Shown piece after piece: positions 28,058 to 34,093 of a stretch of DNA of 40,804 nt. The notes under the pieces are model-generated. The model was given only the letters and a program-made list of their open reading frames with translations, searched no databases and was not told the origin of the DNA. Every line of letters starts with the position of its first letter. Within the stretch, counting starts at the first letter, position 1. Source of the DNA: a virus (Duplodnaviria; Heunggongvirae; Uroviricota; Caudoviricetes); IMG/VR virus record IMGVR_UViG_2687453522_000003, positions 1 through 40,804 of that record; one strand, 5' to 3'. A program made the position numbers and the translations under genes.

Positions 28058-28879
28058 ATGAATTTTTCTTACACAAAACAGGATGGTCATACCAAACGCT
28101 GCCTTGTCAGAGCATTCAATGTTAATACAGCAACAACAGATATACTCTTCGACCAAATTTCAAATTCTGGTAAATTTATTGTTGACACTGTTTTTAAAAT
28201 AAACAATGAACAACATTTAATACTGAAAGAGTTTTCTACAAATAATAAAAGCCATTACTTACACTTTGCATTATATAATCCAAAAGAACAAGTATCGATC
28301 ACACCAAAAATAAAAACCGCAAGCGATCTTCTTGATGTTGAAAACCTTGACAATTTGCACGCTTTTTTATATGTAAAAGAAAATAAAATTGCATCTCTAA
28401 TGCAAATATCAACAAATTGGTGTGAGATTAAAATCGCTAAAATATTCGAGCAATTTGGTATAAAAATAACACCATCAGCAATTTTGCAAAAAAATGTCAT
28501 TCAACGAATTAAAGATGATAAACTTAGGGCTTTGCATCTTAATATTAGCGTTGATGCTTCTAATTTTGTGAAAACGCCCAGCTTTATAGACTCTATTTTT
28601 CAGAAAGAACCCAAACTTAAAGCTAGAGGTATTTCAGGACATTTAACTCTTGATGCAAAAGGAAATGCTGAACTAGCACAATCTATTGAAACCAACCCTA
28701 GTGGTTGGATAAATGATTTGGATTCTGATTTTTATATAGAAACAAAAAAAGGAGAGAAAATAACTAGTGACGACATTAAGTTAACAAAAGTTTATTATAC
28801 AGTCCCTTATGGTTCAAAATCTATTAATTCAAAATATGCGAAAGAAATTCTAGAGGACTTTGCTCAAAAAGAGCTATAA
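28058..28879 (+). CDS. Hypothetical soluble protein (273 aa), first gene of AT-rich cassette
   Basis: Clear ribosome-binding site; low GC; no family recognised. Confidence 0.75.
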   Translation: MNFSYTKQDGHTKRCLVRAFNVNTATTDILFDQISNSGKFIVDTVFKINNEQHLILKEFSTNNKSHYLHFALYNPKEQVSITPKIKTASDLLDVENLDNLHAFLYVKENKIASLMQISTNWCEIKIAKIFEQFGIKITPSAILQKNVIQRIKDDKLRALHLNISVDASNFVKTPSFIDSIFQKEPKLKARGISGHLTLDAKGNAELAQSIETNPSGWINDLDSDFYIETKKGEKITSDDIKLTKVYYTVPYGSKSINSKYAKEILEDFAQKEL

Positions 28880-28902: not shown

Positions 28903-29388
28903 ATGTTAAAATCACTCAATTACTCAGGTATATTATTAACTTTGTTAAACATTTTAGCCTCAGTGTTATTTTCAATTTTCCTCACACATACTTTAACGAA
29001 CAATACTGACGCATTAAATTTGGTCGCCAATGTATTTTCTATCCTATCTGGTTTTCTTTTGTTGGTTATCACAATGTCTGGTGAAAACTCTACTCTGATG
29101 AACAACTTAAGCAAATTAGACGCTGCAAATCAAGAAATACGTTTCCTCATGCGTTTTAACAAATATTATGCTTTATTCTTGTTATATATTTTAACATTAG
29201 CTTTAATTTTTGTTTTTTATTTAATATCCAAGGATAAAGAAAACACATCTCAATACTTCATTCTGTTTAAGAAGTCAATTGGTTACATTATCTCTTTTTT
29301 AACTTGTTTTTCTTTTATACAATCAACATTCATCCCACTAAAAATAAAAGAATTATTTAAAGAGAAAAGACAACTTAATAAAAAATAG
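28903..29388 (+). CDS. Hypothetical integral membrane protein (161 aa, four predicted TM helices)
   Basis: AAGGAGG 8 bp upstream of the ATG; hydrophobic segments about 7-28, 41-59, 88-110, 125-145; Lys-rich C-terminus. Confidence 0.75.
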   Translation: MLKSLNYSGILLTLLNILASVLFSIFLTHTLTNNTDALNLVANVFSILSGFLLLVITMSGENSTLMNNLSKLDAANQEIRFLMRFNKYYALFLLYILTLALIFVFYLISKDKENTSQYFILFKKSIGYIISFLTCFSFIQSTFIPLKIKELFKEKRQLNKK

Positions 29389-31600: not shown

Positions 31601-31990
31601 TCAGGCGGCTGCACCCGCCGGTTTCTCATACTTACTGATAGTGATCTCGACCTTCCCTTTCTGGATAACCGGTCCCCACTCCACCAGCATTCTTTTCACC
31701 TGGCTGTCGTCTTCCCACACACCCGCGTGGGTCAGGGCGTCAAACAGCGCCTTGTTATAGTTGTCCAGATCGCGGATCCGGTTATCCGGAGGAAACAACA
31801 CGATCTCCACTGAAGCTGGTGCCGACGTTGGTTTCGGCAAACGACGTAACTGCTCAATGATGGCTGCACACGCTGCGCTCTGGAATTTTCGCCCCGCCGC
31901 GCTTATCAGGCTCTTACCTGCAAGCGCCCCTTTATTGGGGTGTCGCCAGTACGTGTTCACGCTGGGCGGAAAAGGCAGGATCAATTTCAT
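31601..31990 (-). CDS. rusA: Holliday junction resolvase RusA
   Basis: LPFPPSVNTYWR ... DLDNYNKALFDALT ... DDSQV motifs. Confidence 0.85.
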   Translation of the reverse strand: MKLILPFPPSVNTYWRHPNKGALAGKSLISAAGRKFQSAACAAIIEQLRRLPKPTSAPASVEIVLFPPDNRIRDLDNYNKALFDALTHAGVWEDDSQVKRMLVEWGPVIQKGKVEITISKYEKPAGAAA

Positions 31991-32313
31991 ACTTTCAGGC
32001 CCCTCTCATGTAACCAGTGGGCTGCACGCAGCCTGGCGTTTTCCTCACCGGCAAGCAGTGAGCGGATAATCCCGACCGCCTCGCTGTCGTCGTCCTTCAC
32101 CGCGGTATGAAGAGTGATACCCCGGGCCACGCCACGCTTTATCGTGATGACGCCTTTTTTCTCCAGTGCGCGGAGGTGCTCCACAGCTGCATTCACTGAA
32201 CGGTATCCCAGCATGGTTGCCACCTCCTGATTGGTTGGCGGAAAGCCACGCTCTTTCTGATAAGAAATCAGCATATCCAGCACCTGCTGCTGGCATTGAG
32301 TTAACGTCGTCAT
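31987..32313 (-). CDS. LexA N-terminal DNA-binding-domain-only protein
   Basis: LTQCQQQVLDMLISYQKERGFPPTNQEVATMLGYRSVNAAVEHLRALEKKGVI aligns with the E. coli LexA N-terminal domain; no S24 peptidase domain; start chosen at the ATG overlapping the upstream stop (TAATG). Confidence 0.7.
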   Translation of the reverse strand: MTTLTQCQQQVLDMLISYQKERGFPPTNQEVATMLGYRSVNAAVEHLRALEKKGVITIKRGVARGITLHTAVKDDDSEAVGIIRSLLAGEENARLRAAHWLHERGLKV

Positions 32314-32807
32314 TACGCCCCCACGTAATTCCCTGACAGATACCACTCTTCACCCGATGCAGCGCGCTTGCTGCTTTTCTGTAAGCACTGCTCACGACGC
32401 GCCAGAAAATTGTTTCGTTCTGGCTGGGAGTGGCTTTCACGGAATGCCGCCATCCACACGGTTGCAGCACGACGGTATAAGCCCCTTGACTCCAGTTCTT
32501 CAGCCTGGCGGGTCAGGCACAAAATCACCCGGGGCTCGTTAGTGCCGACATAGAAATTGCGCACAGGTCTGGTTTCACGAACTGGTTGTGGTTCCGGCTC
32601 CTGCGCTCTCTCAGTCAGGCGCGGGAAATGTCTGCGTGTATCTCCTTCACAACGGTGAGCCACACGCCCACTCTGACGTAACTTGCTTACAGACTGCAGA
32701 ACGCGCTGCCGTGAGTAACCTGCAAAAGCATCCGCAATGTCTCCGGAAGTACAGCCCGGATGGGCTTCAATGAATTTCTGAACGTCATTCAAAAGACTCA
32801 TGATCAC
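32313..32807 (-). CDS. Hypothetical protein with PerC/ANR-like motif
   Basis: AEELESRGLYRRAATVWMAAF resembles the PerC-family signature (from memory); sits where a helicase loader is normally found. Confidence 0.45.
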   Translation of the reverse strand: MIMSLLNDVQKFIEAHPGCTSGDIADAFAGYSRQRVLQSVSKLRQSGRVAHRCEGDTRRHFPRLTERAQEPEPQPVRETRPVRNFYVGTNEPRVILCLTRQAEELESRGLYRRAATVWMAAFRESHSQPERNNFLARREQCLQKSSKRAASGEEWYLSGNYVGA

Positions 32808-33745
32808 CCCCTGAATCCTGCCGGGATCTGGCTGTAGTCCACGTTGTCGTAACTGGCTTTGAAGTACGGGTCTTCACGTTTTTCTGTGTGCGTGCTGACG
32901 GACGGCGATAAGCGCAGGGAAAGCTCATCCCATTTTTCCCGCAACTTCGACGGGCTGAGCACGTTACGGCACCAGAACGGATCGCGGCTGACGCGGCTGT
33001 ACATCTCGCAGATTTGTTTGTGAGTACGACCATCCTGCACACACATCAGGCGAATTTCGTTTGCCCAGGCTGTCCAGTTCGGTTCTTTGGGACGAACCAC
33101 CTCGCCGTCACATTCGGCGGCCTGCTCGTACAGGGCAATGATTTTTTTCCAGAGCCACTGTGCGCAGGTCAAATCATCCTGCGTTCCCCACTGGCGCTTT
33201 TTAGGGCTGAATACAACCGCATCAGGATGGCGAGTTAAAAAATCCTGTTCAGCCGTCTGCGTGTCCGGTTGCGAAGCGTCCGGACGAGAAGGTTTTTTAT
33301 CTGACGGATCATGTTTTGATTTTACTGACGGATCCCCGCCAGATTCTGACGGGTGAAAACCCGCTTTTTTGCCAGATTTCGACGCATCAAATTTTGACGG
33401 GTCAGATTTTGATGCGTCAGATTTTGACGGGTCAGAATCTGACAGTTGAGAAAAAGCCGCAACCTGAAGCTTCGCAACGTTAAGCTGATAAACATTCGAC
33501 GCATTGCGGTTACCCTGGCGACGCGCCTTACGCGTTAACCAGCCTTCTGCTTCCAGCCGTGCGATAGCCGTTCTGACGGTACTCATCCCCGCGCCAATCT
33601 GGCGGGCAATGGTTTCAATTGATGGCCAGCACACACCTTCGTCATTACTGAAATCAGCCAGGCGTGCCATAATTGCCACGCTGGATAATTTCATGCCTGA
33701 TGCAGCGCAACCATCCCATACATAGCCGGTTAATTTAGTGCTCAT
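32804..33745 (-). CDS. Replication initiator, O-like (winged-helix N-terminus, repeat-encoded linker)
   Basis: HTH-like N-terminus, internal SKSD/SKFD tandem peptide repeats encoded by DNA iterons, position after cro/cII. Confidence 0.7.
   Translation of the reverse strand: MSTKLTGYVWDGCAASGMKLSSVAIMARLADFSNDEGVCWPSIETIARQIGAGMSTVRTAIARLEAEGWLTRKARRQGNRNASNVYQLNVAKLQVAAFSQLSDSDPSKSDASKSDPSKFDASKSGKKAGFHPSESGGDPSVKSKHDPSDKKPSRPDASQPDTQTAEQDFLTRHPDAVVFSPKKRQWGTQDDLTCAQWLWKKIIALYEQAAECDGEVVRPKEPNWTAWANEIRLMCVQDGRTHKQICEMYSRVSRDPFWCRNVLSPSKLREKWDELSLRLSPSVSTHTEKREDPYFKASYDNVDYSQIPAGFRG
33296..33448. repeat. Iteron array (probable replication origin) inside the O-like gene
   Basis: Repeated CAGATTTTGACGGGT-type units, four to five at 15-bp period from 33374 to 33448 plus more irregular copies from 33296. 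Confidence 0.65.
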
Positions 33746-33754
33746 GACCGACCT

Positions 33755-34093
33755 CTATTTCCCTGAATTTACGACGAAACTGTTCGAGCGGGCTGAAGCA
33801 CTCATGCTCATAGCCTTCGCGGAGGTAGATAACTCGTTGTGTTTCCGGCTCCCAACGAATGACTCTGACGGGCACTCCGTAGTGATCTTTGAACCAGCGG
33901 TTAACTTGTCGCAAAGGACTGTCTCCTTCTGCCGGTTGAAATCACCCACAGCCCACTCAGCAAAGCTGTGGGTTACAATTTCCCTGTCACCTGGTACATT
34001 AACTGCATAGCAATACTCCACCTTCGCTTTTCCACCCGGTACAGGAAGCGCAATCAGTTGCGAGCGACGGTAGTGTGTTGTTAAACTGTTCAT
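33755..34093 (-). CDS. Hypothetical protein
   Basis: ORF whose start overlaps the upstream stop (ATGA) within the rightward-operon analogue; C-terminal half low complexity. Confidence 0.4.

Follow-up and report, generated by a model that had tools for sequence, protein, structure and literature searches.

In phage lambda the origin (ori-lambda) lies inside the O gene, where four iterons encode the linker between the two domains of the initiator, and the C-terminal tail of O (..DLTNTDWIYGVDL) goes with the P protein. Iteron plasmids such as pSC101 (RepA) and R6K (pi) have a winged-helix initiator that binds iterons, and use host DnaB-DnaC without a loader of their own. The host's dnaT gene is the immediate upstream neighbour of dnaC, and DnaT shares the C-terminal peptide RD[VI]NxxSxPDxxIPxGFRG with Rac YdaU, of the ydaU-ydaV pair, and with phage initiators that are paired with DnaC-like proteins. 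How PriA-PriB-DnaT recruits DnaB-DnaC 'remains unknown' according to recent structural papers (PMC13377028). Here we describe the replication module in a stretch of 40,804 nucleotides (nt) of caudoviral DNA, IMG/VR record IMGVR_UViG_2687453522_000003 (hereafter the window). In it, a lambda-O-type initiator gene (32804..33745, minus strand; 313 aa) is followed on the same strand by a yfdN-type gene for a PerC-domain protein (32313..32807; 164 aa). As in lambda, the module sits after cro- and cII-like genes and has its iterons inside the initiator gene, but the window has no P gene and the last ~25 residues of the initiator are DnaT-like. The module is an undescribed mechanistic variant of the lambda O/P scheme. 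New here are the true homology of the initiator to the C-terminal domain of lambda O, the copy of the DnaT tail, and a correlation between the class of the initiator tail and the class of the helicase loader.

The match of the 313-aa initiator to PHROG 391 ('replication initiation O-like') extends over the whole protein (3e-135), and some phage records label the initiator 'primosomal protein (I)'. Its N-terminal winged-helix origin-binding domain (residues ~23-92; 33470..33679, minus strand) was recognized by Pfam HTH_36 (4e-11), by GntR (6e-7) and, weakly, by DnaD_N (1e-3) and RP-C. Pfam Phage_rep_O (PF04492) was not matched by this domain, and the BLASTP alignment to lambda O covered the C-terminal domain only. 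The latter, a helical domain (residues 131-277; 32915..33355, minus strand), is 36% identical to lambda O 139-270 over 149 aa (BLASTP, E=1e-25; tblastn, 3e-23). It is a true homolog of the C-terminal domain of lambda O, not a case of mere shared architecture, and this bears out the O-like assignment made in an earlier note on this DNA. Modelled with AlphaFold, the last 152 residues showed an all-helical core, with a predicted local distance difference test score (pLDDT) of 76.6, followed by a disordered tail (pLDDT <50). Foldseek found no PDB match to the modelled C-terminal domain with E below 2, and its matches in BFVD were phage replication proteins. A DnaT- or DnaD-like fold of this domain was considered and rejected on the lack of a Pfam DnaT match and of a PDB fold match; Pfam DnaT (PF17948) was not matched in the C-terminal region at E up to 10, compared with 3.7e-21 for DnaT itself. 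The tail is therefore the only part common to the initiator and DnaT. PDB was also searched by sequence, with YfdN, the initiator and the tail peptide as queries, and no useful match came out.

Between the two domains, the initiator gene carries about eight copies of TYTGACGGRTCA (33299..33447), partly palindromic and spaced by 15 nt in the core, which form the putative origin. Tandem Repeats Finder detected a 15-nt period at 33373-33436, and a repeat search found five in-register copies with two further copies at 33296-33334 and partial dyad symmetry. When up to two mismatches were allowed, TYTGACGGRTCA gave 7 plus-strand matches within 33300-33434, and all 3 exact matches of the 40.8-kb window fall inside the array. 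Over the whole window 25 matches were counted against 10.0 ± 3.5 expected, a number reached in none of 100 shuffles. The array codes for an SKSD-repeat linker, DPSKSDASKSDPSKFDASKS, between the N-terminal winged helix and the C-terminal domain, the same layout as in lambda O, and just as the earlier note had read it. Two other initiator alleles have different repeats at the same position, as would be expected if each allele recognizes its own origin. A+T content within the initiator gene peaks at 33284..33334 (67.5% A+T in 40-mers), a candidate unwinding region that overlaps with the promoter-distal iterons. Just promoter-proximal to the array, at 33458-33486, lies a short tandem repeat of CGCAACCTGAAGCTT (1.9 copies, 85% matches), which may be due to chance.

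At its extreme C-terminus the initiator reads ..SQIPAGFRG, identical at 8 of 9 positions to the extreme C-terminus of E. coli DnaT (..SQIPPGFRG). The whole DnaT-like tail, REDPYFKASYDNVDYSQIPAGFRG (32807..32878, minus strand), is predicted to be disordered, and we propose it as a docking peptide for host DnaC-DnaB. Among 107 DnaT orthologs (71-100% identical overall) the pattern [KR]RD[VIL]NxxS[EQ]PDxxIPxGFRG is nearly invariant. Some relatives of the C-terminal domain have tails nearer to DnaT (CVNHISEPDTEIPPGFRG, DVNAISEPDNTIPEGFRG), and Rac YdaU, an unrelated DUF1376 protein, ends in LRQVNTVSLPDSAIPPGFRG. Initiator types were surveyed in 80 IMG/VR loci with a near-identical yfdN. The upstream gene was an initiator in 80 out of 80, and three types were distinguished: type A, the window's own (313 aa); type B (330 aa), with the N-terminal domain replaced and the C-terminal domain kept; and type C (268-280 aa), the allele of SfV and mEp460, which apart from the common tail is ~31% identical to type A. 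The 24-residue end REDPYFKASYDNVDYSQIPAGFRG is identical in all three types, and more distant pairs in Salmonella, Hafnia and Citrobacter retain the tail motif with substitutions.

IMG/VR was also scanned with a degenerate DNA pattern for IPxGFRG-stop, covering CGN codons for arginine (the window's own tail has AGG) and TAA or TGA stops. At least 80 loci matched, and 66 of the 80 matches listed were true C-termini of initiator-like proteins of 200-364 aa. Among the matches listed, the carriers were of Phg_2220_C, DnaT-domain, O-type C-domain and YdaU-like type; the presence of the tail on several initiator families points to a portable peptide. One initiator-like protein in IMG/VR (L167:9311-10180, plus strand) has two DnaT-like tails in tandem (..KRDINQLPGPDKQIPAGFRG ARQERDINQISEPDSTIPPGFRG). 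Phage proteins that combine a true DnaT domain (PF17948, 3.9e-18) and the tail with a different N-terminal region were seen at L107, L109, L110 and other loci (271 aa) and at L438. Some of these phage-borne DnaT relatives are followed by RuvC-like or nuclease genes, others (the L438 type) by a DnaC-like loader. A literature search on the DnaT tail in phage proteins, on 'initiator-solo' modules and on SfV-type replication retrieved nothing relevant.

No helicase or loader is annotated in the complete genome of SfIV, a 97.7% identical phage, and none was found in the window or in SfIV by tblastn with E. coli DnaB, DnaC, Rac YdaV, a phage DnaC-like protein, lambda P and a second P. Since no P, DnaC or DnaB is detectable in either, the host helicase must be used, in agreement with the reliance on host DnaB/DnaC that the earlier note had proposed. 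The same note had held the 164-aa protein not to be P-, DnaC- or DnaB-like, and domain, sequence and fold searches likewise gave no match to a loader family: in Pfam, PHROG and NCBIfam YfdN matched neither lambda P (PF06992) nor DnaC/IstB (PF01695) nor DnaB. YfdN as an analogue of P or Ren by sequence was rejected, as it has no similarity to lambda P or Ren (BLASTP against lambda P returned nothing). For helicase loading in these widespread and viable phages without P, DnaC or DnaB, no explanation was found in the searchable literature.

We then compared initiator tails with the loaders next to them. An alignment scan with the O-type C-terminal domain, taking one genome per species, yielded 80 loci from Enterobacterales and one Aeromonas. 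P, assigned by Pfam Phage_lambda_P (1e-60 for the cluster representative), was the next gene at all 28 loci with a ..WNxxEAWExxL tail, at all 13 with a lambda-like ..NTDWIxG.. tail and at all 3 with other tails, and no locus of these classes had a DnaC-like gene or was loader-less. In contrast, P followed none of the 20 initiators with a DnaT-like tail (Fisher's exact p=5e-17, ignoring shared ancestry); 3 of them had a DnaC-like gene nearby, an IstB/DnaC-type ATPase with ~49-50% identity to DnaC, and 17 were loader-less. For two tail-less homologs, P0211 and P0172, P had been expected beforehand as the next gene and was found in both. On the loader side, all 78 YdaV-like and all 79 other DnaC-like phage loaders come after a protein with a DnaT-like tail, a count limited to the 157 loaders with a readable upstream gene, and at least five unrelated initiator families are represented among these tail proteins. 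The simplest reading of these pairings would be that the extreme C-terminus of the initiator is a loader-docking element, and that the DnaT-type tail pairs with DnaC-type loaders, of phage or of host. The earlier interpretation of the module was thus sound in the parts given above and misplaced in its central contrast, because what alternates with P is the tail.

A fourth tail class on the same C-terminal domain, ..WxxIW.. (..RKAWAGIWQQAAEQAA.., ..RQAWNSIWKQA..; L254-L291, for example L257, L272 and L287), was seen at 16 of the 80 loci, in Providencia, Proteus, Edwardsiella, Morganella, Sodalis and Acerihabitans. All 16 are loader-less: P is not the next gene, and nothing P-, DnaC- or DnaB-like is encoded within 3.5 kb. 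Such a tail may be another loader-less route.

On the basis of these comparisons we propose the following scheme. The lambda-O-type initiator would bind the allele-specific iterons inside its own gene, the putative origin. Its disordered, DnaT-like tail, standing where lambda O has the tail that goes with P, would mimic DnaT and dock host DnaC-DnaB on the unwound origin, most likely via DnaC, and the phage would need no loader of its own. As the window has the tail and no loader, host DnaC-DnaB would be recruited directly, and the initiator tail, not the PerC gene, would stand in for P. The window differs from dnaT-dnaC and ydaU-ydaV in having no DnaC-like gene and in globular domains unrelated to PF17948 and DUF1376. 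It differs from the plasmid Rep systems in that its initiator is homologous to lambda O and a DnaT-mimicking C-terminal peptide is the proposed recruiter. YfdN, translationally coupled to the initiator, would lie outside helicase loading, in a small winged-helix slot that would come directly after the replication genes in all types of lambdoid module. On balance we lean towards this joint reading, in which the tail recruits host DnaC-DnaB in place of P and YfdN is a separate DNA-binding early regulator. A wider version can be put forward only tentatively, and we would sooner doubt it than adopt it. In this version initiator C-terminal tails would be an exchangeable 'loader code', in which WNxxEAWE and NTDW dock P and ..RDxNxxSxPDxxIPxGFRG docks DnaC-type loaders; host DnaT would hand DnaB-DnaC to restart forks by its last 10-20 residues, and the loader-less phages would have copied the host peptide.

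Several observations weigh against the proposed scheme. The window's tail is close to DnaT in its last 9 residues only, and the suggested link between tail and DnaC/DnaB is drawn from comparative data, with counts that are inflated by shared ancestry, many IMG/VR loci being close relatives. The identical tail on three E. coli initiator alleles amounts to one recombining DNA block that includes yfdN (the block shared with mEp460, of 95.5% DNA homology, extends from yfdN to 75 nt inside the 3' end of the initiator gene), so that a functional link between tail and YfdN is possible. A 2026 preprimosome study names the N-terminal domain of DnaT, not the tail, as a possible recruiter of DnaB/DnaC (PMC13377028). 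In its structure the DnaT C-terminal domain docks on PriA via a small hydrophobic interface and the DnaT linker on PriB; the tail could accordingly bind PriA, PriB or single-stranded DNA (ssDNA) instead (PMC13377028). Removal of DnaT residues 154-179 lowers ssDNA binding and cooperativity modestly only (PMC4132743), and the 2026 cryo-EM papers state no role for these residues. The docking on PriA (PMC13377028) keeps alive a rival in which the tail recruits the restart primosome (PriA and/or PriB) and not DnaC, with PriA-PriB-DnaT-dependent loading as in Mu/ColE1-type replicons. It would also suit this rival that the tail (IPPGF) is hydrophobic and conserved. Its acidic-IP-F pattern, moreover, loosely resembles the PriA-binding C-terminal tail of SSB. 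We nevertheless judge this target unlikely, as the strict pairing of the tail with DnaC-type and not P-type loaders is simpler as a tail-loader contact, and residues 154-179 are not credited with the PriA contact in the preprimosome paper (PMC13377028).

The common DNA block also speaks for the view that YfdN is the functional counterpart of lambda P, an adaptor that would bind the initiator tail or C-terminal domain and deliver host DnaB through its winged helix or PerC domain. In the three alleles and in the Salmonella, Hafnia and Citrobacter relatives yfdN always lies directly after the initiator gene and is translationally coupled to it. YfdN relatives of 25-38% identity keep this synteny with tail-bearing initiators of other families, in most cases with an ATGA overlap, and the disordered end WYLSGNYVG of YfdN is conserved. 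Furthermore, two-domain YfdN-like proteins were found only with DnaT-tail initiators (6/20 vs 0/60, p=1.3e-4), and occur also in 37 of 66 cases of the viral survey, among the matches listed; a slot unrelated to the tail does not explain this restriction. An adaptor of this kind seems to us improbable all the same. No PerC gene is present in the examined flanks of 14 of the 20 DnaT-tail initiators of the species sample, nor at L097, L112, L131, L156 and L158. The tail is carried also by DnaT, YdaU and DnaT-domain phage proteins, all without a YfdN partner; YfdN resembles P, DnaC and DnaI neither in sequence nor in fold; and analogous small winged-helix genes come after P and DnaC-like loaders. 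The gene junction itself (32799..32812, minus strand), read directly from the sequence as AGG GGG TGA TC ATG, offers yet another explanation, namely that the tail has no loading role and is kept as a ribosome-binding or coupling signal for the next gene, DnaB being recruited by the globular C-terminal domain as in plasmid Rep. The final Arg-Gly codons of the initiator (AGGGGG) double as the Shine-Dalgarno sequence for yfdN, and an ATGA overlap with the next gene is found in most tail-bearing genes. However, the 18-20-residue motif is kept as protein despite differing codons (Arg CGN vs AGG) and DNA, it persists where the next gene begins 121 nt away and in host DnaT orthologs, and on the same C-terminal domain it anticorrelates perfectly with P; we consider a pure coupling signal quite improbable. 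Least credible of all is a reading of the module as the non-functional remains of a decayed prophage whose loader gene was lost. A truncated copy does exist in K-12 CPS-53, with yfdO (122 aa), yfdN and a yfdM fragment, but the window genes are intact and 97-98% identical to those of likewise loader-less phages with complete-genome records (SfIV, SfII, vB_EcoM-689R6 and others), and the arrangement recurs in ~1550 complete E. coli genomes.

The start of the 164-aa gene overlaps the stop of the initiator gene. Translation could begin at a GTG overlapping that stop or at an ATG two codons later, and homologs begin at MSL. RefSeq names the gene yfdN, 'PerC family transcriptional regulator', and its product matched Pfam PerC at 6.7e-9 and PHROG 1324 at 1e-77. 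The N-terminal winged helix (residues 1-62; 32622..32807, minus strand) was modelled by AlphaFold with a pLDDT of 77-89 and has a weak Pfam MarR_2 match. Foldseek against PDB retrieved only winged-helix repressors (ArsR/SmtB/MarR/DsrD; root-mean-square deviation ~2 Å over ~60 residues), and a PDB sequence search with YfdN gave 0 matches. A disordered linker leads to a predicted three-helix bundle (residues 92-107, 111-124 and 128-146), of which the PerC domain (residues 100-151; 32355..32510, minus strand) is a part. YfdN contains AEELESRGLYRRAATVWMAAF, with the core LYRRAATVW in the PerC domain. Of the earlier label 'PerC/ANR-like', the PerC half stood, at 36.3 bits against a cut-off of 22.6, whereas YfdN scored below the cut-off of the NCBIfam ANR model (NF033650; 22 vs 32 bits) and is in this respect unlike ANR proteins. 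The C-terminal motif WYLSGNYVG (32319..32345, minus strand) is predicted to be disordered (pLDDT ~31-33), and its columns are invariant or nearly invariant in 12 homologs. The family is small: in a set of 1.8 billion representatives it makes up ~25-30 full-length clusters at 50% identity. The relatives of 25-38% identity behind other tail-bearing initiators all have the PerC domain in common, and two groups of them resemble YfdN over the whole length.

YfdN shares with the PerC/Pch proteins (PF06069) of enteropathogenic and enterohaemorrhagic E. coli (EPEC/EHEC) a PerC match above the Pfam threshold and a phage-borne gene. It is unlike PerC itself, a single-domain activator of LEE1/ler of ~80-100 aa, in its length of 164 aa, its added winged helix and its conserved C-terminal motif. 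Pch counteracts H-NS at A+T-rich DNA by displacing it (PMC4764244). By analogy, the PerC domain of YfdN could displace H-NS from A+T-rich DNA, and YfdN is probably a DNA-binding early regulator or an H-NS counter-silencer. Regulation of host genes is plausible on the same analogy with Pch/PerC. K-12 yfdN has been described as 'the K12 unique PerC homologue' and was deleted as a precaution (PMC5931665); a literature search on YfdN function retrieved nothing relevant. YfdN and its neighbours were also considered as known defence proteins and this was rejected, PADLOC giving only two weak partial matches (to the LexA-like and KilA-N proteins described below) that were not taken as meaningful.

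Inspection of related modules revealed small genes of similar kind at the same place. Small winged-helix genes (DUF1627, DUF977 or unnamed) lie directly after DnaC-like loaders; in P-type modules P is followed by a 108-aa protein that resembles DUF977/winged-helix proteins by eye, with no Pfam match; and PerC-only proteins (81-82 aa) are found behind P or within ..WxxIW..-tail modules. In loader-less modules the slot after the initiator is occupied by YfdN, DUF977 or DUF1627. Two of the PerC-only proteins are encoded by the second open reading frames (ORFs) downstream of the initiator at L255 and L240, one with a Pfam PerC match of 5e-9 and the other with the motif and no Pfam match. YfdN thus appears to fill a generic small winged-helix slot, separate from helicase loading, and to adjoin the initiator here because no loader gene lies between. 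The idea of a PerC protein instead of a loader therefore survives in the absence of the loader and fails in putting YfdN in the place of P, as P and DnaC-like loaders, too, have the small winged-helix/PerC slot behind them.

We assign the region to an SfIV/SfII/SfV-type lambdoid prophage, as its replication module. E. coli CRE1493 matches the segment 31900-34200 at 100% identity; Shigella phages SfIV and SfII, like several E. coli phages, match it at 97-98%, and 1548 of 5426 complete E. coli genomes contain at least 80% of it. The module is very common in E. coli/Shigella prophages, and more than a quarter of complete E. coli genomes carry it. Its sequence is nothing unusual and became known when the SfV, SfII and SfIV phages and K-12 yfdO-yfdN were sequenced. 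The order initiator, yfdN, (dam), LexA-like gene, rusA is common to SfV, SfII, SfIV, mEp460 and CPS-53. The K-12 CPS-53 copy (L099, E. coli K-12 2472112-2473246) is a decayed yfdO-yfdN-yfdM module, in which yfdO is the C-terminal remnant of this initiator and yfdM a dam fragment. The DnaT-like tail is kept in identical IMG/VR and genome copies of K-12 yfdO.

The surrounding genes make up an early-right operon of the usual lambdoid kind. A cI-like S24 repressor gene on the plus strand is followed by minus-strand genes for Cro-like and CII/YmfL-like proteins, a 112-aa ORF, DUF4222, the initiator and YfdN, and downstream of yfdN by genes for a protein with only a LexA DNA-binding domain, RusA, KilA-N, DUF968/HNH and Q. 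The DUF4222 gene (33735-33914, minus strand) overlaps the initiator start by 11 nt and is itself overlapped by the 112-aa ORF (33755-34093, minus strand; PHROG 1170, function unknown). Relatives carry an anti-repressor-like Phage_pRha/ASH gene and a 74-aa ORF in place of these two. The gene after yfdN (31987-32346, minus strand; RefSeq start at 32313) encodes only LexA's N-terminal DNA-binding domain (Pfam LexA_DNA_bind, 3.7e-19; TIGR lexA residues 1-91) without the S24 protease domain, which makes its product a candidate LexA mimic that would resist cleavage. A dam methylase gene separates yfdN from this gene in many relatives; the window has no dam there. Two plus-strand ORFs, 28058-28879 and 28903-29388, lie between the Q antiterminator and the lysis genes, a typical moron position. 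Pfam and PADLOC searches gave no family match for either, and the second looks membrane-like by weak DUF matches.

The tail-loader correlation offers a concrete and cheaply testable answer to how these phages load a helicase, and bears on the recruitment of DnaB-DnaC in replication restart. The mimicry of the DnaT tail and this correlation are the parts worth an experiment. If the tail is a DnaC-docking peptide, it would be a natural case of phage mimicry of a short host peptide motif, a marker to predict the loader dependence of prophage replicons, and a means to dissect what DnaT does. A further outcome is that PerC-type regulators, to which the EHEC/EPEC virulence activators are related, have a conserved slot beside lambdoid replication genes; the PerC-only proteins there suggest that virulence regulators of the PerC/Pch type derive from this phage early-gene slot.

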